Source: a virus
Length of the DNA: 40,819 bases
IMG/VR virus record: IMGVR_UViG_3300029369_000006
Coordinates: 1-40,819 of that record
Direction: 5' to 3' (one strand)
Positions within the stretch are counted from its first letter, which is position 1. The number at the start of each line of letters is the position of its first letter. The position numbers and the translations under genes were made by a program. Shown piece by piece: positions 2,608-38,572 of the stretch. Under the pieces are notes generated by a model. The model was given only the letters and a program-made list of their open reading frames with translations. It was not told the origin of the DNA and searched no databases.

Positions 2608-2918
2608 GCAAAAAGCAGCTGGAAATTAAAAATCAAGCACTGTTGGATTACATAAAAGCCGCGATCTGTGTGCTGGATGATCAGACAGCAGAGGCGAGAC
2701 ATAAGGCAGCATATACGGCAGGTCTTTTGAGCGTGGCAGAGGAAGGCGCAAACAGAAATGTAGCAAGAGGGTATTTTACACCGACTCCAAAATGGAGAAT
2801 CCGGTATGCGGATGGAACAGTTGGATACCAGCTATACGAAAGAAAATATGCTGTGGAAATTGCTGAGAAAAAGAAAGACGAATACGGCGGCAGTTATACG
2901 ATTGAGCCTGTGGAATGA
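2595..2918 (+). CDS. hypothetical early protein
   Basis: ORF-track 2586..2918. The ATG at 2595 is preferred because AGGAGG (2581-2586) lies 8 nt upstream. Confidence 0.65.
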   Translation: MAGLSKKQLEIKNQALLDYIKAAICVLDDQTAEARHKAAYTAGLLSVAEEGANRNVARGYFTPTPKWRIRYADGTVGYQLYERKYAVEIAEKKKDEYGGSYTIEPVE

Positions 2919-3010
2919 AAAAGGATCCTCAGAGCTGCAACTCAGAAGGATCCAAAAGATAATAATAGTTTATCACCCTTTCATTGTATGAGGGTAGAAA
3001 GGAAAAGTCA

Positions 3011-3214
3011 ATGATTAAAGCAGGGAAAACAGGAAACAAAATGTTACTGGAAATTACAGGAGATACACATGAGTTGCTTTGTGAATTTGATGCTGCACTA
3101 AAAGCCATATATGTGATACTGGATAACAGCCTTGTGGAATCAGCTCCATTTAATACGGAAGATATCTTACACACAATGGTAAAAAGAACAGCGGCAGAGA
3201 AAAGGGGAAAGTAA
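3011..3214 (+). CDS. hypothetical early protein
   Basis: In frame with ORF-track 2984..3214. The ATG at 3011 has an AAAGGAAAAG SD, whereas the upstream ATG has none. Confidence 0.55.
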   Translation: MIKAGKTGNKMLLEITGDTHELLCEFDAALKAIYVILDNSLVESAPFNTEDILHTMVKRTAAEKRGK

Positions 3215-3217
3215 GAA

Positions 3218-4489
3218 ATGAGTATGAAAATTAATAAGCTTGAAATTGAAAATGTCAAACGTATCAAAGCTGTAAAAGTAGAGTTTAAAGCAAACGGGCT
3301 TACAGTAATCGGCGGAAACAATAATCAGGGAAAGACTTCTGTTTTGGATTCCATTGCGTGGGCGCTTGGTGGGGAGCGCTACAAGCCATCACAGGCAACA
3401 AGGGAGGGTTCTGTGATTCCACCGACGTTACATATTGTAATGAATAATGGTCTTGTGGTGGAGCGCAAAGGAAAGAACAGCGCACTGAAAGTTACAGATC
3501 CCAATGGGCAGAAAGCAGGACAGCAGCTTCTGAATGAGTTTGTGGAACAGCTTGCATTAGACCTTCCTAAATTTATGGAAGCTTCCAGTGCAGAGAAAGC
3601 CAAAATCCTTTTGCGGATCATTGGTATTGGACCTCAGCTCACACAGCTTGAACAGCAGGAAAAAGAGCTTTATCAGGAACGTTTATACATTGGACGTACT
3701 GCAGATCAGAAAGAGAAATTTGCAAAGGAACAGCCATATTATACGGAGGCCCCCAAAGATTTAATATCTGCTTCTGAGCTGATCCGTCAGCAGCAGGAAA
3801 TCCTTGCAAGAAACGGAGAGAATCAGAGAAAACGTGAACAGCTGCACCAGTTAGAGCAGAGATACCAGCGGATCAATGAGCAGATGGCCAATCTGCTGGC
3901 CGAACAGAAAAAGGTGGAAAGTGATCTGGAGATTGCAAGAAAATCTGCACTGGATCTGCACGACGAATCTACGGAAGAGCTTGAACAGAATATTTCCAAC
4001 ATTGAAGAGATCAACCGGAAAGTCAGGGCAAATCTGGACAAGGAAAAAGCGGAAGATGATGCCAAAACATATCGTGATCAGTACAATTCGCTGACAAAAG
4101 ATCTTGAAGATGTAAGAGACAAAAAAGCAGAGTTGTTGAATGCAGCAGAACTTCCTCTTCCAGAACTTTCTGTCAAGGAAGGTGAACTGATCTACAAAGG
4201 TCAGAAGTGGGATAACATGTCTGGTTCTGATCGGTTAAAGGTATCAACTGCGATTGTGAGAAAGCTGAATCCAAACTGCGGCTTTGTGCTTCTGGACAAG
4301 CTGGAACAGATGGATATGAAGTCTTTACAGGAGTTTGGTGAATGGCTGGAAGCAGAAGGTCTTCAGGCAATCGCAACAAGAGTAAGTACCGGTGATGAGT
4401 GTTCGATCATTATCGAAGACGGATATGTGGTTGGACAGAAGACACCGGAAGAACCTGAAAAGAAAGAATGGAAGGCAGGTACATTTTAA
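3218..4489 (+). CDS. SMC/SbcC-like AAA ATPase (recombination/replication module)
   Basis: The N-terminal Walker A is GGNNNQGKTSVLDSI. A long central coiled coil follows. The C-terminal signature and Walker B-like region is GFVLLDKLEQMD. Confidence 0.8.
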   Translation: MSMKINKLEIENVKRIKAVKVEFKANGLTVIGGNNNQGKTSVLDSIAWALGGERYKPSQATREGSVIPPTLHIVMNNGLVVERKGKNSALKVTDPNGQKAGQQLLNEFVEQLALDLPKFMEASSAEKAKILLRIIGIGPQLTQLEQQEKELYQERLYIGRTADQKEKFAKEQPYYTEAPKDLISASELIRQQQEILARNGENQRKREQLHQLEQRYQRINEQMANLLAEQKKVESDLEIARKSALDLHDESTEELEQNISNIEEINRKVRANLDKEKAEDDAKTYRDQYNSLTKDLEDVRDKKAELLNAAELPLPELSVKEGELIYKGQKWDNMSGSDRLKVSTAIVRKLNPNCGFVLLDKLEQMDMKSLQEFGEWLEAEGLQAIATRVSTGDECSIIIEDGYVVGQKTPEEPEKKEWKAGTF

Positions 4490-14488: not shown

Positions 14489-14563
14489 CGGAACATAGCT
14501 CAGCAGCGGTAGAGCAGAGGCATTTCAGCACTTGTGTCGGTGGTTCGAGTCCATCTGTTCTGA
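14489..14563 (+). tRNA. tRNA-like gene with non-canonical anticodon arm (best reading anticodon UUC, Glu; no encoded CCA)
   Basis: The acceptor stem CGGAACA/TGTTCTG is 7 bp with one G-U. The D arm is GCTC-AGCAGCGGTA-GAGC. The T arm is GGTGG-TTCGAGT-CCATC. The variable loop is GTGTC. Only 3 of 5 anticodon-stem pairs form in GAGGC-ATTTCAG-CACTT. Confidence 0.55.
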
Positions 14564-16588: not shown

Positions 16589-17963
16589 ATGAGTTCTGAA
16601 AGATTAATATTATCTGATAAATACAAAGCATTTCTGAGATGCGATACACCGGTAGAATTCCTGGAGGGTTAGCACGACTGCAGCGGGCAAGACAACCGTT
16701 GGTCTGTTTAAGTTTATGTGCAAGGTTGCGGAATCACCGAAGAAACTGCATATCCTGGCAGCAGATGACACCGGAGCCGCAGAGAAGAACATCATCAACA
16801 AAGACCTTGGCATTCTGGATGATTTCGGAATATTGACTGAGTATAAAGGCAATGGATCCGGGGAATACAAGATGCCACATATCCTGTTCCATACATCCGG
16901 CGGGGATAAAATTATCTTTGTCGTTGGATATGGTAACAAGAGCAAGTGGAAGGATGCCCTTGGCGGTCAGTATGGATGCCTGTATATTGATGAAATCAAC
17001 ACTGCAAATATAGAATTTGTCCGTGAGGCATCCATGCGCTGTGATTATCTGATGGCAACGCTTAATCCGGATGATCCGAGTCTTGATGTATACAAAGAGT
17101 ATATCAACTGCGCCAGGCCACTTCCGGAGTGGGCGGACAACACTCCGCAGGAAATTAAAGAGGAATTGAAAGAAGAACCAAAACCCGGCTGGGTCCATTG
17201 GTTCTTTTCTTTTGACGATAATGCCGGTCTTCCGGAAGAAAAGAAACAGAGAATCATACAGAATACCCCGAAGGGAACAAAAATCTGGAAAAACAAGATT
17301 GAGGGGCTGAGAGGCAAGGCAACCGGGCTGGTGTTCCCGAATTTCAGTAGAAAGAAACATGTTGTATCTGAGAAATGGTTAAGGTCCCAGATAACAGCAG
17401 GAAAGATTAAATTCAAGAAGTTCACCTGTGGACTGGACACTTCCTATTCTTCAAAATCCCCGGATACAATCGCAATGATGTTTCAGGGAATCACAGAAGA
17501 CAGGAAGTTGATTACGCTTGCTGAAAAAGTATATAGCAACAAAGAACTGGATCAGCCACTTGCTCCGTCAGATACAGCGGTAAAATTTGTTGAATTTCTG
17601 GAAAGATGCCGCAAAGACTGGGGATTTGCAAAAGATACATTTGTTGACTGCGCAGATGCGGCAACAATTACAGAACTGCGGAAATATAAGCGTCTGCGTG
17701 GATGCTTATACAATTTCGTAGAATCTTACAAGAAAGTAGAAATACTGGACAGAATCAAGCTCCAGTTAGGTTGGATCCAGCAGGGATGCTATTTGGTATT
17801 GGACGCATGTACCAATCATATTACGGAAATGGAAAAGTATTCATGGAACGAAGACAAAGACATTCCAGAAGATAAAAATGATCATACGATCAACTCGCAG
17901 CAGTATGGATGGATCCCGTTCCGCAATATGATCGGATTTGAGGTGGAGGAACAGAAAAGGTGA
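16589..17963 (+). CDS. terL: terminase large subunit, reading frame interrupted by a +1 shift within 16656-16672
   Basis: The 27-codon N-terminal piece MSSERLILSDKYKAFLRCDTPVEFLEG ends at TAG (16670-16672). The Walker A STTAAGKTTVG and the rest of the protein (ORF-track 16716..17963) lie in the +1 frame, which is open from 16656. The C-terminal nuclease-like region is DTSYS...DHTINSQQY. Confidence 0.8.
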
Positions 17964-19588
17964 AATGGATGGAAAAATTAAATGAAAACATAAAAAAGAC
18001 GGTCAGGAGCTGGTTGAATGTTCTTCCGGCAAATCCCTTTAATTTTCAGATTAATGAAATGATGGATTTTGAAGGACATGCGATCTTAAACCGTATCTGG
18101 TACAGAGGTGACGGCAACGAGCTTGAACAGATCTATCGACAGAATGCAGAATTTGCAGACAGGCATAAGTTCTGGGCAAGCAAGTCAACACCTGGTATGG
18201 ATATACGTAAGATCCACACAGGACTTCCGGGACTGACAGTTAAAGTTCTTTCTTTCGTAGTTCTTCCAGACATGAATGATTTTGAATTTGAAAATCCGTC
18301 GCAGGAAGAATTATGGAAAAAGATTGAAAAAGATAATAAATTTCATAAAAAGATAGAAAGTGCCCTCAAAGAAACACTGTTTATTGGGGATGGTGCTTTT
18401 AAAGTTACCGTCGATACAACTATCAGTGAGTATCCGATATTGGAATGGTATCCCGGTGACAGAGTAGAATTTATTTACCAGAGAGACCGAATTAGAGAAA
18501 TTGTGTTTAAGACCCCATATGAAGAAAAGGGTAAGACATATGTACTGAATGAACGGTATGGCTATGGTTACATCATTAACGAACTGTATCTGGGAGATAA
18601 GCTGGTAGATATTAAGACAATTAAATCTACAGAAAATCTGGTAGATATAACGTTTGATGATTCTGTAATGTTTGCTGTACCATTGATGATTTACGAATCC
18701 TCCAGATACGAAGGCAGAGGCGGCAGCATCTTTGATGGAAAGCTGGACAGCTATGATTCGCTGGATGAAACATGGTCACAGTGGATGGATGCTTTAAGAG
18801 CAGGACGTGCAAAGACATATATTCCGGAATGTTTGATTCCGCATGATCCGGCAACTGGAGCACTGGTCAAACCTAATCCGTTTGATAACAGGTATTTTGC
18901 ATCTGACGGCGACATGAGGGAAGGGCAGAAGAATCAGGTTATTACAGATCAGCCGGTAATTCCGCATGACAGCTATATGGCATCGTATATAACAGCTCTT
19001 GACCTGTGTCTGCAGGGAGTTATCAGTCCTTCTACCCTGGGGATTGATACAAAGAAACTGGATAATGCGGATGCACAGAGAGAAAAAGAGAAAACCACAC
19101 TGTACACCAGAAATGCAATTGTAAAAGCCTTGCAGGAAACATTACCGGATGTTGTTGCGATGTGTATTAATGCGGACAATATTTTTCTGCATAAAAAAGG
19201 TGCAGAAGAAGTGAAAGTCAATGTTTCGTTTGGAGAATATGCAAACCCATCTTTCGAAAGTCAGGTTGAAACGATCGCAAAAGCAAAACAGGGCGGAATC
19301 ATGAGTATTGAACGATGTGTGGAAGAACTTTATGGTGATACTCTCGATGAGCATTGCAAAGAGGAAGAAATCACTCGTTTAAAAGCAGAACAGGGAATAC
19401 AGGATATGGAAGAACCGGCGGTGAACATGACAGCCGGTGATTTTTATGCAGATCTGGAAGGCGGTGAAGGTGATGAGGGTAAAAGTAGGACCACGAATGT
19501 ACAGAATGAGCCGCAAGGAGTACCAGGGACTACTCCAAGTAGCAAAGGAGCAGGTGCCGATGGGAATCTACGCGGTGGAAAAAGCTGA
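17960..19588 (+). CDS. portal protein (SPP1 gp6-like)
   Basis: 542 aa. Its start overlaps the terL stop. It holds the expected position and size, with an acidic/Gly-rich C-terminal tail. Confidence 0.85.
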   Translation: MKWMEKLNENIKKTVRSWLNVLPANPFNFQINEMMDFEGHAILNRIWYRGDGNELEQIYRQNAEFADRHKFWASKSTPGMDIRKIHTGLPGLTVKVLSFVVLPDMNDFEFENPSQEELWKKIEKDNKFHKKIESALKETLFIGDGAFKVTVDTTISEYPILEWYPGDRVEFIYQRDRIREIVFKTPYEEKGKTYVLNERYGYGYIINELYLGDKLVDIKTIKSTENLVDITFDDSVMFAVPLMIYESSRYEGRGGSIFDGKLDSYDSLDETWSQWMDALRAGRAKTYIPECLIPHDPATGALVKPNPFDNRYFASDGDMREGQKNQVITDQPVIPHDSYMASYITALDLCLQGVISPSTLGIDTKKLDNADAQREKEKTTLYTRNAIVKALQETLPDVVAMCINADNIFLHKKGAEEVKVNVSFGEYANPSFESQVETIAKAKQGGIMSIERCVEELYGDTLDEHCKEEEITRLKAEQGIQDMEEPAVNMTAGDFYADLEGGEGDEGKSRTTNVQNEPQGVPGTTPSSKGAGADGNLRGGKS

Positions 19589-19700
19589 CTATGCAGAACT
19601 CCGACGGGATAAATGTGAAAGTATCACAAAACTAAAAGAGCTGACACGGCAGTTCAAAGCACAGGGCTTCAAGGTGTGGTCAAATGGCAAAGATAAATGA
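19560..19700 (+). CDS. possible 46-aa protein overlapping the portal 3' end and the MuF 5' end
   Basis: The frame is open from 19437. Translation is MGIYAVEKADYAELRRDKCESITKLKELTRQFKAQGFKVWSNG, which has non-random helical character. The start codon is uncertain. Confidence 0.3.
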   Translation: MGIYAVEKADYAELRRDKCESITKLKELTRQFKAQGFKVWSNGKDK

Positions 19701-21297
19701 TGAGTACGATATTGGTGCTGCTTTCGAAGCAATCGAAAATGAACTGATCTCATCTATGATCCGGAACTTCGAAAACCATAAGCAGGAAGAACTTGATGAA
19801 AAAAAACACTGGTCCATGTGGCAGACGGAGATGTTAAAATCCCTGGAAAAGTACAAGCATGACAACCAGAAGAAATATGGAAAGCAGTTCAAGGACATTA
19901 ACAAACAGATCGAGGTACTGATCAGACTTGCAAGAAGCGAAGGTGGTATGAATCAGGAGAAACGGATACTGGAAGAAATCAAGAAAGGATTTCCTGCAAA
20001 ACGTATTGCAAAAGGCGGCACTGCAGAGTTTTTTAAAGTCAATGACAGAAAGTTGGATGCGCTGATTCAGGCAACCACATCGGACATACAGAAAGCAGAG
20101 GCAGCAGTTTTACGCATGGCAAATGATCAGTACCGAAAGATCATATATAACGCGCAGGTATACGCTAATACCGGAGCTGGTACATATGAGAAAGCGGTAG
20201 ACATGGCCACAAAGGATTTTCTTTCTGCAGGTTTGAATTGCATCCAGTATACCAATGGAGCAAGACACACAATTGCTGACTACGCAGATATGGCAATCCG
20301 GACAGCGAGCAAGAGAGCTTACCTGCAGGGGGAAGGCGAAATGCGTCAGCAGTGGGGAATGCATCTTGTGATTATGAATAAGCGAGGTTCTCCATGTCCG
20401 AAATGTCTGCCCTTCGTTGGTAAGATTCTGATAGATGATATGTGGAGCGGTGGCAGCAGTAAAGATGGGAAATATCCGCTTATGTCTTCGGCAATAGCAG
20501 CAGGTCTCTATCATCCCCGGTGCAAAGATTCTCATACTACATATTTCCCGGGTATCACGAAAGTAGATCCGAAATACAACAAACAGGAAATCTCTGATCT
20601 GGAAGAACAGGCACGGCAGGAAGCCAGACAGCAATATGCCGAGCGTCAGGAAAAGAGATTTGGAAGACTTACAGATTTCTCACTGGATCCGGAGAACCGG
20701 CAGAGGTACGAACAGAAACAAAAAGAGTGGAAACATGTTCGAATGAGAACCGGTGATATGGATACTCAGGAATATGTAGAAGTTAAAAAGGCAAAGGCTT
20801 TTTTAGGAGAACCAATAGATATAACATCTTTATGGACGGACAAGGATTCTGGACATGGAAAAGTAAAAGACATATTGAAAGTTCATATAAATAATGAGTT
20901 TTTTGAAGTAAACGGAAAAACAGTATTGCTGGATTATTCTGCGCATGAGAAAGAAATTGCTGAAATAATAGCTGAAAAATGTGGAAAAAATGTTGAAATG
21001 GTGCCACGAGTGACATACCCACAGGGAATACAAACACCGGATTATCTGATTGATGGATCAAAATATGATTTGAAAACACCGATTGGAAATGGAAAGAATA
21101 CATTGTATGGGATGATGAAATCCAAGAAACGGCAAGCAAATAATTTTGTTATATGTGCAGATAAAACAGAATTAAGCACGGAAGAACTGAAACGTCAGAT
21201 AAAAGCTATATACACATCTAGAAATACAACATTTGTTGATACGATTGTATTAATTCGAAATAAACAAATAGTAAAAGTGTATAGAAGAAATAAATAG
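19684..21297 (+). CDS. MuF / SPP1 gp7-like minor capsid (head morphogenesis) protein fused to a C-terminal nuclease-toxin-like domain
   Basis: The MuF core reads YRKIIYNAQVYANTGAGTYEKAVD...NKRGSPCPKCLPFVGK...YHPRCKDS. A coiled linker follows. The roughly 170-aa A+T-rich C-terminal domain carries TPDYLIDGSKYDLKTP (PD...D-x-K). Confidence 0.8.
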   Translation: MAKINDEYDIGAAFEAIENELISSMIRNFENHKQEELDEKKHWSMWQTEMLKSLEKYKHDNQKKYGKQFKDINKQIEVLIRLARSEGGMNQEKRILEEIKKGFPAKRIAKGGTAEFFKVNDRKLDALIQATTSDIQKAEAAVLRMANDQYRKIIYNAQVYANTGAGTYEKAVDMATKDFLSAGLNCIQYTNGARHTIADYADMAIRTASKRAYLQGEGEMRQQWGMHLVIMNKRGSPCPKCLPFVGKILIDDMWSGGSSKDGKYPLMSSAIAAGLYHPRCKDSHTTYFPGITKVDPKYNKQEISDLEEQARQEARQQYAERQEKRFGRLTDFSLDPENRQRYEQKQKEWKHVRMRTGDMDTQEYVEVKKAKAFLGEPIDITSLWTDKDSGHGKVKDILKVHINNEFFEVNGKTVLLDYSAHEKEIAEIIAEKCGKNVEMVPRVTYPQGIQTPDYLIDGSKYDLKTPIGNGKNTLYGMMKSKKRQANNFVICADKTELSTEELKRQIKAIYTSRNTTFVDTIVLIRNKQIVKVYRRNK

Positions 21298-21427
21298 GAG
21301 CTGTTTTCGCTCCCGGCAACCTTGAAGTATCAAGGGCAAAAGGGGGAACAAAACAACTCCTATAAGATATCTTATACATATTTTACGATAATATGCGTGA
21401 AAATGCAAGCTAAGTTTCGTTAATTTT

Positions 21428-21457
21428 CACCAGTCAGAAATGGCTGGTGGTATTTTT
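21428..21457 (+). terminator. rho-independent terminator
   Basis: An 8-bp stem pairs CACCAGTC with GGCTGGTG (one G-U) around an AGAAAT loop. GTATTTTTA follows. Confidence 0.6.
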
Positions 21458-21491
21458 ATACCCATTTTTATGAAAGAGAGGACAGAAAAAG

Positions 21492-21791
21492 ATGAAAAAA
21501 TTATTTATCAGCCAGCCTATGAGGGGCAAAACAGATGAGGAAATCCTTGCAGTGAGAGAAAAAGCAATCAAAAGCGCAGAAGAAATGATTGGTGAACCTG
21601 TGGAAGTGATTGATTCGTTCTTTCAGTCAGCACCTGCAGATGCAAGACCACTGTGGTTTCTTGGAAAATCACTGGAATTACTGTCTACAGCAGATGTGGC
21701 ATATTTTGCAGAAGGCTGGAATGAGTTCAGAGGCTGTAAGATTGAACATACCTGTGCTGTAGAATACAACATTGATCGAATTGAAGAGTAA
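21492..21791 (+). CDS. DUF4406 / nucleoside 2-deoxyribosyltransferase-like small protein (alternative: immunity protein for the MuF C-terminal domain)
   Basis: 99 aa. The N-terminal MKKLFISQPMRGKT and the C-terminal AYFAEGWNEFRGCKIEHTCA resemble the ISGPM...GW..S.G...E pattern of that fold. Confidence 0.45.
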   Translation: MKKLFISQPMRGKTDEEILAVREKAIKSAEEMIGEPVEVIDSFFQSAPADARPLWFLGKSLELLSTADVAYFAEGWNEFRGCKIEHTCAVEYNIDRIEE

Positions 21792-21815: not shown

Positions 21816-22004
21816 GTGAGAACGGTGAGGATAAGAGTAATCCACGATTTCAAAGATATGCAGAATGATCTGAAACTCAGATCTGTCGGTGAAACTATGA
21901 CGGTATCAAAAGAGAGAGCTGAGTATCTGGCACACATGAAAGTAGCAGAGATTATCGATTCGAAAGGCGGTGATCCGGAATCTCCCATTGAGGCGCAGGG
22001 TTAA
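21816..22004 (+). CDS. 62-aa hypothetical protein
   Basis: GTG start after GGAGGGAGGTGAGAACG. Confidence 0.5.
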   Translation: MRTVRIRVIHDFKDMQNDLKLRSVGETMTVSKERAEYLAHMKVAEIIDSKGGDPESPIEAQG

Positions 22005-22118
22005 GCGTCTTATTTTTATGTCCAAACACGATATGACGTGAAAAGGTGCGTGGCCGGTGACACCGATGACAATGGATGAAACAAGAGTGACACTCTCAAA
22101 ATGGAAAGGAGTCCAGAA

Positions 22119-22751
22119 ATGGCAGAGAATAACACAGGAACACAGAACAATGCAAATCCACAGGGTGAACCTCAGAATGGGGCACAGAACAGCCAGCAGC
22201 AGACACCACCAGCAATTGACTATGGAAAGATTCAGCAGATGCTGGACGGAACTCTTGCGGCAAAAGAAGATACTGCCTTAAAAGCGTATTTTAGGCAGCA
22301 GGGACTCTCGCAGCAGGAAGTTGAACAGGCAATATCTGCATTTAAAGAGCAGAAAGCAGCAAATCAGCCAGATGTGACTGGCATGCAGAACCAGATCACA
22401 GAGACGCAGGCACAGCTCGCGACAGCACAGAAAGCGGCTCAGGCGGCACATGTAGAAAGTGCAGCTACAATGATGGCTGTTTCACTGGGCATCGATGCAA
22501 AAACAATTCCATATGTCCTTAAAATGGCTGATTTCAGTCAGGTAATTGGACAGGATGGGAAAATCAATGAAGAAACATTGAAAACAGCGGTAAATAAAGT
22601 ACTGGAAGACATTCCGGCACTGAAACCACAGGCTGACGGAAAGACCGGCTTTACACAGATTGGGACTGGTGGCAATCCGGCACAGCATCCGCAGCAGACA
22701 ACAACAAATCAGCCGACAGTACCGACAAAACGCTGGAATCGTTGGAATTAA
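22119..22751 (+). CDS. capsid scaffolding protein
   Basis: The ATG at 22119 follows AAAGGAG. The N-terminus is Q/N-rich and disordered, followed by a helical region. It lies immediately upstream of the major capsid gene. Confidence 0.7.
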   Translation: MAENNTGTQNNANPQGEPQNGAQNSQQQTPPAIDYGKIQQMLDGTLAAKEDTALKAYFRQQGLSQQEVEQAISAFKEQKAANQPDVTGMQNQITETQAQLATAQKAAQAAHVESAATMMAVSLGIDAKTIPYVLKMADFSQVIGQDGKINEETLKTAVNKVLEDIPALKPQADGKTGFTQIGTGGNPAQHPQQTTTNQPTVPTKRWNRWN

Positions 22752-22798: not shown

Positions 22799-23776
22799 AT
22801 GGCATTAAATTATGCAGAACAGTGGAGCCCGGAACTCCTTGAGATCCTGATGCAGGGAACCCTGACATCTCCGTTTGTGACCAGCAATGTAAGATGGCTG
22901 GATGCGAAAACATTCCATTTCACTCAGATGAGCACATCCGGTTACAAAAATCATAACCGTAAAGGTGGATGGAATACCGGAACTTATGATCAGAAAGATG
23001 TACCATTCACACTGGAACATGACCGCGATGTTGAATTTATGGTAGACAAAGCAGATGTTGATGAAACAAATGCAACAGCATCTATCCAGAATATTTCACG
23101 TGTATTCGAACAGACGTGGGTTGTACCGGAAACAGATGCATTATTCTTCTCGAAGGTAGCTCAGGCAGCACAGAAAGAAGAAGGCTACCATGGATCCACA
23201 GCTACATCCGCGTATACTAAAGCAAAAGTTTTTAGTATGTTAAAAGATATCCTTGCAAAAGGAAAACTTAGAAGATACAAAGCAAACGGTTCCCTGATTA
23301 TGTATGTTTGCAGTGAGATCATGGATGCCCTGGAGCAGTCCACAGAGTTTACACGTAAGATTGAGATAACTCAGATCGCAGAGGGCGGTATGGGAATCGA
23401 AACCAGAGTAACAGACATTGACGGAGTTCCGATCATGGAAGTAATCGATGATGAACGTTTTTATGATGCATTTGACTGGGAACCGGAAGGCGGCGGTTTT
23501 GCACCACTGAAAAAAGTTGCTGCAGATCAGGAACATAGTGTTGAAGCGGTGACAGGCGCACACAAAATTAATGTGCTGGTAGCGTGCGGACAGACCTGCA
23601 AGACAGTTCCGAAGATCAACAGCATCTATTACTTTGAACCGGGAGCACATACAAAAGGTGATGGTTATCTGTATCAGAACAGATCTTTCTCTGATGTATT
23701 TGTATTTCCGAATGGTCGTGATGGCAAGATTGACAGCATCTATGTAGATGTGGATACTACAGAAGTTGGTGCCTGA
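22799..23776 (+). CDS. major capsid protein
   Basis: 325 aa with N-terminus MALNYAEQWSPELLEIL. The position after the scaffold and the size fit the SPP1-type capsid class. Confidence 0.85.
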   Translation: MALNYAEQWSPELLEILMQGTLTSPFVTSNVRWLDAKTFHFTQMSTSGYKNHNRKGGWNTGTYDQKDVPFTLEHDRDVEFMVDKADVDETNATASIQNISRVFEQTWVVPETDALFFSKVAQAAQKEEGYHGSTATSAYTKAKVFSMLKDILAKGKLRRYKANGSLIMYVCSEIMDALEQSTEFTRKIEITQIAEGGMGIETRVTDIDGVPIMEVIDDERFYDAFDWEPEGGGFAPLKKVAADQEHSVEAVTGAHKINVLVACGQTCKTVPKINSIYYFEPGAHTKGDGYLYQNRSFSDVFVFPNGRDGKIDSIYVDVDTTEVGA

Positions 23777-37153: not shown

Positions 37154-38572
37154 TTACGATACGATAATGTCAAAGTACATTTTGCCGGATTCTTTGTCAT
37201 AGACAATCTGGTCAACAATTGTCCGTATCAGGGTTCCTTTTTCTTCATAACTCACATCTGGATTTTTCAAAATGTCATTCACGGATTTGATTTCGTGGAG
37301 GACATCATCTTTATTCAATTCTTTTTCTTCCTGCTCCTTTTGCAGTGTTTCCAATTCATTTTCGAGCTGCAGGCGGTTATTGATCAGGCGGTCTTTGTTG
37401 GCTTTGTATTCTTCCAGCGTGTCAATTCCACTTTCGTATGCATCCCGGATCCGATTCTCTCTGGTGGAGAGTTTGGACAACTCCCTTTGAATTTGTTCAA
37501 TTGCAGCAGTGTTGTCTGCAGTTGGTTCATCCTTACGGATGTATGTAAAGTCTGCTCCTGAAAGAATCTGATCAAAATATGTGATCACAGCTTCTTCTGC
37601 CTTTCTTACAGACAGAGCAACGGAAGTCTTGTGAAATCCTTTTGCATATTTCCAGCACTGGAAGTATGGACACTTGCCATTTCCAGTGTAGGAGAGGGTA
37701 GCGCCACAGACAGAGCATTTCAGCAATCCGGATAACCAGTGCTTGCACGTGGAAACATTCCGGGTTTTCATGGGACGTTTCCGGGATGCAATCAATCGCT
37801 GCCTCCGGTCAAAACGTTCCTTCGAGATTCGGACTTCATGCGCACCCTCGAACTCTACCCCGTTCCATGACACGATTCCACAGTAAAAAGGATTCTGCAG
37901 GATCCGGTCAATGGTCCGCCGCTCAAAAGGATTTCCCCGTTTGGTCTTATACCCCAGATCATTACATTTCCTTGCAATGGCAGTTTCATCCATGTTCTGG
38001 TTATCATACAGATCCATGATATAAGATACCATAGCATACTCGGCTTCATTGATCTGGTAGGGCTTTCCATGTCCGACAGCTTCATAGCCGAGACAAGGAG
38101 AGGACTGGTAGCCATTTCGGAGAGCTTTTTCTTTCATGCCTCGCAGGACTTCACCGGAGAGCCGGATAGAGTAGTATTCATCCATCCATTCAATGATGCG
38201 CTCGATCAGCGTGCCAAAAGGACCGTCCACAAGGGGCTCAGATACGCTTATTACCTCCACATGATCTTTCTTGAGCATACTCTTGTATACGATAGATTCC
38301 TCCTGATTACGGGCAAATCTAGAGTATTTCCAGACCAGTATCACATCAATCGGATGCGACGGCTGTTTGGCAATGCCAATCATACGCTGAAACTCAGGAC
38401 GCTTTTGCACATGCCGGCCGGACACGCTCTCAGAAAAGATAAAATCATTGGAAATAATGATGCCGTTCTTTTTGGCATAGTCCAGCAGCAGACGCTTCTG
38501 AGCATCGGGAGAAAGTTCTGCCTGATCATCTGTGGAGACACGGATATACAAAGCTCCAATACGATCACTCAT
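37154..38572 (-). CDS. int: large serine recombinase (integrase)
   Basis: The N-terminal resolvase domain YIRVSTDDQ carries the catalytic Ser. Also present are the VWKYSRFARN motif, a recombinase domain, a zinc ribbon (CSVCGATLSY...CPYFQC) and a C-terminal coiled coil. Confidence 0.95.
   Translation of the reverse strand: MSDRIGALYIRVSTDDQAELSPDAQKRLLLDYAKKNGIIISNDFIFSESVSGRHVQKRPEFQRMIGIAKQPSHPIDVILVWKYSRFARNQEESIVYKSMLKKDHVEVISVSEPLVDGPFGTLIERIIEWMDEYYSIRLSGEVLRGMKEKALRNGYQSSPCLGYEAVGHGKPYQINEAEYAMVSYIMDLYDNQNMDETAIARKCNDLGYKTKRGNPFERRTIDRILQNPFYCGIVSWNGVEFEGAHEVRISKERFDRRQRLIASRKRPMKTRNVSTCKHWLSGLLKCSVCGATLSYTGNGKCPYFQCWKYAKGFHKTSVALSVRKAEEAVITYFDQILSGADFTYIRKDEPTADNTAAIEQIQRELSKLSTRENRIRDAYESGIDTLEEYKANKDRLINNRLQLENELETLQKEQEEKELNKDDVLHEIKSVNDILKNPDVSYEEKGTLIRTIVDQIVYDKESGKMYFDIIVS

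Follow-up and report, generated by a model that had tools for sequence, protein, structure and literature searches.

A CdiA_C-type nuclease module on a phage MuF protein, accompanied by a predicted antisense small RNA gene

The viral sequence IMGVR_UViG_3300029369_000006 of IMG/VR (positions 1 to 40,819, the whole stretch of 40,819 nucleotides analysed, termed here the window) encodes a 537-amino-acid MuF protein that ends in a nuclease module of the CdiA_C family. The module behaves as an exchangeable cassette and has no linked immunity protein. Directly after its stop codon there is a conserved, structured RNA element linked to the toxin, and the opposite strand carries promoter and terminator signals for it. 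It is tentatively proposed that this RNA of ∼90 nt is an immunity factor or antitoxin, and that toxin and RNA together form a self-contained mobile cassette found across MuF1, MuF2 and stand-alone loci of Bacillota. If this holds, RNA-based immunity would be described for the polymorphic-toxin class for the first time. The toxin part is a confirmation of a first-pass annotation of this DNA, a reading made from the letters alone; the negative result on the reading frames proposed there as immunity genes and the toxin-linked antisense RNA gene are new. Taken as a whole, the reading of the locus given here, with toxin, architecture, RNA element, regulation or neutralisation of the toxin by the RNA and tRNA substrate combined, is probably right.

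The phage-capsid route for polymorphic toxins, by way of MuF proteins, was defined by Zhang et al. (2012; PMC3482391). For the MuF toxins of temperate phages, the Bp1026b CdiA-CT tRNase domain cd13442 has been named among the toxin domains, and a downstream immunity gene is typical (89%) and not obligatory (Jamet et al., 2017; PMC5576092). A downstream immunity-protein gene has been shown for Apk2/IapK/Aph1 (PMC12226406). The gene described here belongs to this class as a new member of an already published architecture. As in other members, the N-terminus is of the MuF superfamily, the gene follows the portal gene, the C-terminus is a variable toxin domain shared between proteins, and the phage is temperate. 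The small downstream gene expected in the class encodes an immunity protein, whereas here small open reading frames (ORFs) are present, none of them toxin-linked, and the conserved partner is a convergent small-RNA gene. The features of the locus are as follows.

19684..21297, plus strand: MuF-toxin gene, 537 amino acids, directly 3′ of the portal gene (from the ORF list; PF06152 and PF18451 matches)
19717..20658, plus strand: MuF2 (Phage_min_cap2) head-morphogenesis domain, residues 12-325 (PF06152, phrog_581)
20659..20817, plus strand: charged linker, residues 326-378, with the predicted 5′ recombination boundary of the toxin cassette
20818..21294, plus strand: C-terminal toxin module, residues 379-537, a small N-terminal beta subdomain and a PD-(D/E)xK nuclease core
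21034..21270, plus strand: Pfam CdiA_C (PF18451) core match, residues 451-529 (E=4.7e-18, 65.6 bits)
20947, 21040, 21067, 21073 and 21124, plus strand: candidate catalytic codons E422, D453, D462, K464 and K481
21278..21372, minus strand: predicted antisense small RNA of ∼90 nt (fold, covariation, and covariance-model match at 21278-21371, 111.6 bits)
21374-21363, minus strand: 5′ leader of the RNA, palindrome TAAGATATCTTA
∼21361-21294, minus strand: three-tier hairpin of the RNA, after which a U-rich tail overlaps the toxin stop codon and the last 4-5 codons
21380..21408, minus strand: predicted sigma-70-type promoter, −35 TTGCAT (21408-21403), 17-nt spacer, −10 TAAAAT (21385-21380)

The toxin-linked RNA element

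An element of ∼65 nt lies directly 3′ of the toxin stop codon in nearly all toxin loci (compared loci carry L-numbers; L062 is Anaerostipes phage AC844P2, OP172636, and L001 is Streptococcus phage SMP). In the window its fold is a three-tier hairpin with the stop codon in the base, and the free energies are −29.8 kcal/mol on the plus strand (z=−5.2) and −34.7 kcal/mol on the minus strand. Covariation analysis and the covariance model were based on an alignment of 15 sequences. Of the 27 pairs found by RNAalifold, 15 show double-sided changes, versus 5.9 ± 1.2 in shuffles, and none of 500 shuffles reaches 15. Paired cells amount to 98.7%, versus 44-56% when the partners are slid. The internal loops contain the invariant sequences CCCC..UU..C and UUG.CGGGA. 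Rfam contains no family that reaches its gathering score with either strand or any variant of the element.

The functional molecule is taken to be the opposite-strand RNA because of the G·U pattern, the stability of the minus-strand fold, the U-tract and the minus-strand promoter. The 15-sequence alignment contains 47 minus-strand G·U cells, and reading it on the plus strand would turn none of its unpaired cells into a wobble pair; C·A mismatches in the stems of the coding strand are G·U pairs on the opposite strand. The minus-strand fold is the more stable in 25 of 30 loci, by a mean of 3.2 kcal/mol. Each hairpin, read on the minus strand, runs into a U-rich tract that is complementary to the A-rich final toxin codons, and a scanning tool reports a minus-strand terminator-like site in the window and in L059. 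The RNA is predicted to start near 21372 and to end near 21280.

A minus-strand promoter that scores at least 10 out of 12.5 is present in 29 of 37 loci, compared with 0 of 37 for the plus strand. The same threshold is reached by 8.8% of shuffles, by 6.7% of the regions after other ORF stops in the same loci (n=165) and by 9.5% of these when AT-matched (n=84). Predicted start sites lie 45-75 nt beyond the toxin stop codon, and the TTG of the −35 and the TAnnAT −10 hold the same register across lineages that are otherwise unalignable. L059 has a perfect-consensus promoter, TTGACA-17-TATAAT with an extended −10 TG, directly followed by a 16-bp stem and U8; the scanning tool finds both promoter and terminator there. 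That the element is a real, structured antisense RNA element linked to the toxin is considered very likely, and its transcription is predicted from these signals.

Linkage to the toxin was assessed by running the covariance model on toxin-related loci (507 kb), on the 40.8-kb window and on head-module control loci (792 kb). All matches in the toxin-related loci, save one weak stray, lie directly after the toxin stop; the strong matches are on the minus strand, with much weaker plus-strand mirrors at the same sites. Lineages outside the set used to build the model are matched as well, namely L041-L052 (E ∼1e-7) and Clostridia prophages (1e-6 to 1e-3), and the match in phage SMP is marginal (E=0.04). 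No match was found in the MuF locus of AC844P2, which is without this toxin, and no second match in the window. Among the head-module controls, all 4 loci with the toxin and none of the 156 without it are matched (Fisher's exact p ∼4e-8), with the qualification that many counted loci are related, so that counts overstate independence and the sequence-distinct lineages number ∼15. The element follows the toxin gene on MuF1, MuF2 and stand-alone backbones, and in the stand-alone chromosomal toxin copies the RNA gene is likewise present, its promoters are good and a partner ORF is missing. Among the publications searched, none was found that links polymorphic or MuF toxins to antisense RNA.

The relatedness of the loci weighs against the proposed role of the RNA as an immunity factor, and several further points do likewise. 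Three toxin loci, L060, L061 and L096, have no recognisable hairpin. The −35 of the window is weak (TTGCAT, 3/6), and that of the 17-locus L013 group equally so. Between the window and L035 the element is 95% identical in DNA, versus 58% protein identity for the toxin, and such conservation is unlike the co-diversification expected of a specific immunity factor. The hairpin could also be a mere terminator or insulator. On that explanation, the main rival but considered rather unlikely, the element would only terminate, insulate or stabilise an mRNA 3′ end and so mark the end of a mobile cassette, and the reverse promoter would be incidental or would block read-through. Consistent with this are the lack of co-diversification with the toxin, the resemblance of the minus-strand hairpin to a canonical intrinsic terminator, and the arrangement in L059, where the promoter almost abuts the terminator and little RNA body is left. 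A plain terminator, however, needs no invariant internal loops, and these are kept from MuF fusions to stand-alone copies. Promoter and terminator are moreover conserved as a pair in ∼15 lineages otherwise unalignable, and the element is toxin-specific, being absent from all 156 matched toxin-less head-module loci.

A number of smaller observations concern the element. The C-run in the conserved internal loop (a plus-strand G-run, positions 21342-21346 of the window) varies from 5 to 8 among the near-identical loci L013, L016, L034, L004 and L006, which could be assembly noise or slippage. The sole model match away from a toxin stop is in L089 (4172-4247, minus strand, 22.7 bits, E=0.02), ∼700 nt downstream of a genuine element. 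Two extra viral contigs retrieved with a loose DNA pattern were set aside as GC-rich chance matches without the toxin. A second copy of the leader palindrome, at 3158, is within coding sequence, and such matches are about as numerous as chance predicts. The window shows no enrichment of sites complementary to the C-rich loop (AAAAGGGGG). The hairpin was also considered as a mimic of the tRNA-Ala acceptor stem. It has GCUCC at the 3′ side of the stem, but the stem covaries freely elsewhere and ARAGORN reports no tRNA.

In two lineages a tRNA gene lies just past the antisense promoter, at most ∼125 nt from the toxin stop:

L054 2467-2540 and L055 3518-3591: tRNA-Trp (CCA)
L057 3561-3637 and L059 3562-3638: tRNA-Pro (UGG)

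A tRNA gene was rejected as a general partner of the module, being limited to these two lineages, with differing identities, and missing from 46 other loci.

The nuclease module and its backbones

The ORF at 19684..21297, with 537 amino acids and the peptide strings quoted in the first-pass annotation, was found as described there. The first ∼300 residues had been assigned to a MuF head-morphogenesis domain, and residues 12-325 indeed match PF06152 (MuF2) with E=5.3e-33 and 114.9 bits (cut-off 26.3 bits); this MuF2 part also matches the phrog_581 minor head protein (E=3e-72). The more A+T-rich DNA reported for the C-terminal part is seen as a fall in G+C from 0.40-0.49 (19700-20799) to 0.29-0.375 (20800-21299). 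An extra domain had been placed from about residue 370, at about nt 20790. A conserved module is present, but that coordinate is one base out of frame (residue 370 is at 20791), and an alignment with 19 homologues of the C-terminal 168 residues, obtained by a word-indexed search, places the start of the module at DITSLW, residue 379 (nt 20818).

The match of the module to PF18451 scores 65.6-68.6 bits against a cut-off of 26.6 bits and spans profile positions 2-81 of 81. A profile of the 19-homologue alignment detects one meaningful chain in the PDB, 4g6v_A (E=0.0044). With the single sequence, 4g6v appears only weakly (E=0.45) and amid antibody noise, so that the family profile and a fold search were needed for the link. 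An AlphaFold2 model of the module has a mean predicted local distance difference test score (pLDDT) of 89.2 and a predicted TM-score (pTM) of 0.85, in agreement with the earlier description of an extra globular domain, which in the model is independently folded. In a Foldseek search of the PDB with this model, 4g6v_A is the sole significant match (E=1.4e-4, probability 1.00); the superposition of the predicted model gives a TM-score of 0.67 normalised to the target, with 116 columns and a root-mean-square deviation of 3.0. Weak matches below it are of restriction-endonuclease type, XPF and MspJI. The order of core elements in the model, beta-alpha-beta3-alpha-beta-alpha-beta2, is that reviewed for Bp1026b.

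The structure 4G6V is a CdiA-CT/CdiI toxin and immunity complex of Burkholderia pseudomallei, whose toxin has a PD-(D/E)XK fold, is a Mg2+-dependent tRNA-Ala nuclease and has the active-site residues E187, D214, D223 and K242 (PMC9086364). In the profile alignment, E422 (in HEK), D453 (in TPDY) and D462 (in YDLK) correspond to Bp1026b E187, D214 and D223; K242 aligns within ∼1 position of K481, a lysine in KSKKRQ. The D-D spacing (9) and the D-K spacing (19) are the same in both. Conservation was assessed in 77 representatives, which are full-length family members with <50% mutual identity and all match PF18451. D453, K464 and Q484 are invariant among them and E422, D462 and L463 are at least 90% conserved. 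The P-D...D-x-K arrangement noticed in the first-pass annotation is thus present and conserved in its D and K residues, with E422 as an additional upstream residue, and the CdiA-CT tRNase-type reading offered there was upheld by the hidden Markov model (HMM) and structure searches. A search of NCBIfam with the toxin and the small ORFs gave no informative match.

The CdiA-CT(II)/CdiI pair of Bp1026b (4G6V, PF18451, cd13442) and the module therefore share the Pfam family, the core topology, the aligned Glu/Asp/Asp and identical spacings, at ∼22% identity. Unlike the module, which sits on a phage capsid protein, the Bp1026b toxin uses a type V secretion filament. In the module, an extra N-terminal beta subdomain replaces the cytoplasm-entry domain of the contact-dependent inhibition (CDI) toxin. 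Bp1026b has CdiI, whereas no CdiI-like protein was found here. The catalytic lysine K242 of Bp1026b is supplied by the following helix, and K481 stands outside the conserved columns of the 77-member alignment, unlike the canonical D-x-K lysine K464, which weighs against a simple transfer of the Bp1026b active site. Since the family has K464 and Bp1026b lacks it, the active-site geometry, and the lysine used, may differ from Bp1026b. The identity of the toxin domain and the MuF-toxin architecture are held with high confidence. For tRNA as the substrate, by analogy with Bp1026b, the balance is even.

The C-terminus is exchangeable, as the first-pass annotation had expected from other MuF toxins. 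The closest cultured-phage orthologue, the 538-amino-acid MuF of AC844P2, is 63% identical over residues 7-348 and unrelated beyond, so that an alignment of the C-terminal region with an ordinary MuF protein, which would have spoken against an added toxin domain, is excluded for this orthologue. L011 has 91% identity to the window in the MuF part and 66% in the toxin part, and its identity, at 76-96% before, is 23% over the 30 residues from residue 378 onwards. Likeness to MuF1-type fusions (for example L013) begins at KEWKHV, at ∼residue 346. By these alignments the 5′ boundary of the toxin cassette would lie at about residues 348-378, within the linker, and the cassette would extend from ∼residue 347 to the stop codon. 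The AC844P2 MuF2 protein (L062 225-1838) has a different C-terminus of ∼190 amino acids, annotated as hypothetical, with faint RadC/JAB-like similarity (E ∼0.01), which may be another MuF toxin domain.

The same module is found on MuF1-type (HPNCRC) proteins of Streptococcus phages SMP and Javan273 and of many metagenomic phages. An exhaustive HMM search gave 1150 cluster representatives at E≤1e-3 and 240 at E≤1e-30, with the module nearly always at the extreme C-terminus of proteins of 400-600 amino acids. MuF fusions account for 64 of the 77 representatives, 39 with PF04233 (MuF1) and 25 with PF06152 (MuF2). All 17 genomic loci recovered are in metagenome-assembled genomes (MAGs) of Bacillota, from Lachnospiraceae, Clostridia and Bacilli.

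Some members depart from this pattern. One of the 77 representatives has a Phage_portal_3 N-terminus and another contains an intein; P0010 (portal fragment and toxin) and P0013 (aldolase and toxin) resemble assembly chimeras. MuF and toxin are separate, overlapping ORFs in different frames in L003/L030 (in L003, MuF 2802-4004 and toxin 4001-4465) and in L006 (3061-4035 and 4001-4660). Siblings of these contigs have a single 557-amino-acid fusion, and the split may be a sequencing error, pseudogenisation or a real frameshift. Stand-alone toxin copies of ∼160-180 amino acids occur in non-phage chromosomal contexts (L007 3951-4433, L266 3001-3486, L265 1343-1888, and L262-L264), in the neighbourhoods Rho-SpoU-toxin, DprA-YraN-toxin-KsgA and helix-turn-helix protein-toxin-YpeB. 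Two of them adjoin RNA methyltransferase genes, SpoU/TrmH upstream in L007 and KsgA/RrnaAD downstream in L266.

These chromosomal copies, in ordinary operons beside RNA methyltransferases and DprA/YraN, are consistent with another explanation, by which the nuclease would be a phage-beneficial or housekeeping enzyme of RNA or DNA processing (host shut-off, counter-defence, RNA processing) that needs no immunity. There is also no conserved immunity protein adjoining the domain, and MuF, as a late gene, is expressed in a producer cell that is doomed by then. The explanation is nevertheless improbable in view of the homology to a demonstrated CDI toxin with catalytic residues kept, the cassette-like polymorphism of MuF C-termini and the tight coupling to an antisense RNA gene, as is usual for genes that do harm when expressed. 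It is very improbable that the domain is catalytically inactive and serves the head protein only as a structural decoration: the wide alignment does show variation at the lysine that corresponds to Bp1026b K242, but the invariance or near-invariance of E422, D453, D462, K464 and Q484 in the 77 representatives points to purifying selection on the active site.

Immunity candidates and proposed mechanism

Between the toxin and scaffold genes of the window are three features that do not belong to the RNA element:

21427..21460, plus strand: terminator-like hairpin and T-run, before the 99-amino-acid ORF (homologous hairpin in AC844P2, L062 ∼1990-2035)
21492..21791, plus strand: accessory ORF of 99 amino acids, DUF4406-like or nucleoside 2-deoxyribosyltransferase-like (phrog_355, E=1.9e-15)
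21816..22004, plus strand: conserved small head-module ORF of 62 amino acids (phrog_933)

The hairpin at 21427..21460 belongs to the phage backbone and lies outside the toxin cassette, because its homologue is present in AC844P2, which does not have this toxin. The two ORFs had been suggested as immunity candidates, and their position between toxin and scaffold genes fits such a role; neither is specifically toxin-associated. L010 is 97.8% identical in DNA to positions 17791-21470 of the window and 100% identical in the toxin domain, and yet has an unrelated DUF6275 gene in place of the 99-amino-acid ORF, with homology ending at 21470 and resuming at 21788. At least 595 viral contigs carry the family of the 99-amino-acid ORF, and the toxin is in 0 of the 80 closest loci (77-99% identical). 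The 62-amino-acid ORF has a homologue after the AC844P2 MuF, whose C-terminus differs, and is missing from most toxin loci. In addition, in 17 MuF1-toxin loci the scaffold gene is only ∼315 nt away from the toxin gene and the coding strand of this gap has no ORF above 41 amino acids, and neither ORF of the window matches any immunity family or the CdiI chain of 4G6V. Both were rejected on these grounds as immunity proteins, and a cognate immunity function for either is most improbable. Across the toxin loci compared, no adjacent conserved protein was found.

DUF6275 is near this toxin in phage SMP, L004-6, L010, L028, L032 and L034. It was likewise rejected as an immunity candidate: the window is without a copy, and at least 565 contigs carry DUF6275, with the toxin in only 4 of 80 loci. 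Across related phages the gap between MuF and scaffold genes holds Tad2-like (anti-Thoeris), ORF6N, DUF6275, DUF4406 and HNH-like genes; this slot is an accessory-gene (or anti-defence) hot spot, not an immunity locus. If the role of the RNA is confirmed, this would also be a warning not to take the small ORF that follows a toxin for its immunity gene. The exchange between positions 21471-21787 of the window and 3681-3970 of L010 is a sharp cassette swap between phages otherwise 95-98% identical. In phage SMP, the ORF directly after the MuF-toxin gene (L001 3625-3948) has an HEIAH motif and weak similarity to M78/ImmA-like metallopeptidases (E ∼0.02-0.04), and the DUF6275 gene is three ORFs beyond it.

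In the proposed mechanism, a few copies of the MuF toxin would enter the capsid through the portal and be delivered together with the DNA to the next cell, in which the nuclease would cleave tRNA and halt translation. Packaging and delivery are modelled on SPP1 gp7 and the MuF-toxin model, and tRNA cleavage and toxicity would follow by analogy with Bp1026b. In place of a conserved immunity protein, the toxin cassette would carry a convergent small-RNA gene 3′ of its stop codon, and the antisense RNA would restrain the toxin. By the likeliest route, the RNA would pair with the toxin mRNA at its 3′ end, and RNase III cleavage would follow. This route is favoured because convergent, 3′-overlapping RNAs silence toxins of Bacillota prophages via RNase III and because OOP RNA of lambda is a phage precedent. 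By a less likely route, the RNA would bind the nuclease directly as a decoy, in the manner of type III systems. Against the favoured route, the invariant loops and the need to quiet a tRNase during late translation would be better explained by direct RNA-protein inhibition. That the RNA regulates or neutralises the toxin at all, a function we infer, may equally prove right or wrong.

The likeness to known RNA-based systems is partial. In type I toxin-antitoxin systems, convergent 3′-overlapping antisense RNAs are those of txpA/RatA and bsrG/SR4 in B. subtilis and CD2517.1/RCd8 in C. difficile (PMC6563280). The predicted RNA would resemble these in having its own promoter convergent to the toxin, a 3′ overlap, a place in Bacillota prophages and a duplex that would be an RNase III substrate. 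Type I toxins, however, are membrane peptides of ∼50 amino acids, with the DNase RalR and SymE as rare enzymatic exceptions, whereas the toxin here is a soluble nuclease domain of 160 amino acids, usually fused to a MuF virion protein of ∼370 amino acids and in a late operon, and the predicted coding overlap is only ∼15 nt. OOP of lambda is a short RNA with its own promoter and terminator that is convergent to the 3′ end of cII and triggers RNase III-dependent decay. The predicted RNA would share the layout of OOP; the OOP target is a regulator, not a toxin, and OOP is not mobile with the target gene. In type III systems (ToxIN, CptIN) an RNA neutralises an endoribonuclease by direct binding. 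Such binding would explain the conserved loops and would give protection against a toxin that arrives as protein. The type III RNAs consist of tandem repeats that precede the toxin gene, share its strand and are processed by the toxin, in contrast to the single hairpin found here on the opposite strand, downstream of the toxin.

To our knowledge, no immunity mechanism has been characterised for nuclease-type MuF toxins. If confirmed, the proposed role of the RNA would tie polymorphic toxins to RNA-antitoxin biology of type I or III and would bring to light a small-RNA family, widespread among prophages of gut Bacillota and so far uncatalogued. It also bears on how a phage tolerates the making of a tRNase amid its own late protein synthesis.

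Phage context

The gene order around the MuF-toxin gene is large terminase, portal, MuF-toxin, two small ORFs, scaffold and major head protein. The neighbouring genes are:

16716..17963: large terminase gene
17960..19588, plus strand: portal gene (phrog_533, E=4.8e-99)
22101..22751, plus strand: head scaffolding protein gene (phrog_2303, E=5.5e-41)
22799..23776: major head protein gene
37154..38572, minus strand: large serine recombinase (integrase), with Pfam Resolvase, Recombinase and Zn_ribbon_recom

The window also encodes an ImmA/IrrE-type peptidase and a GH25+CHAP endolysin, and because of these and the serine recombinase the phage is regarded as a temperate phage or prophage. The first-pass annotation had named temperate Bacillota phages as carriers of such fusions, in agreement with the integrase and the ImmA-like peptidase, and genomic homologues are found in the chromosomes of Bacillota MAGs. 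A phage tRNA-Glu (UUC) gene is present at 14489-14563 (plus strand), just upstream of the small terminase gene; it could encode a toxin-resistant replacement, or it could be unrelated to the toxin.

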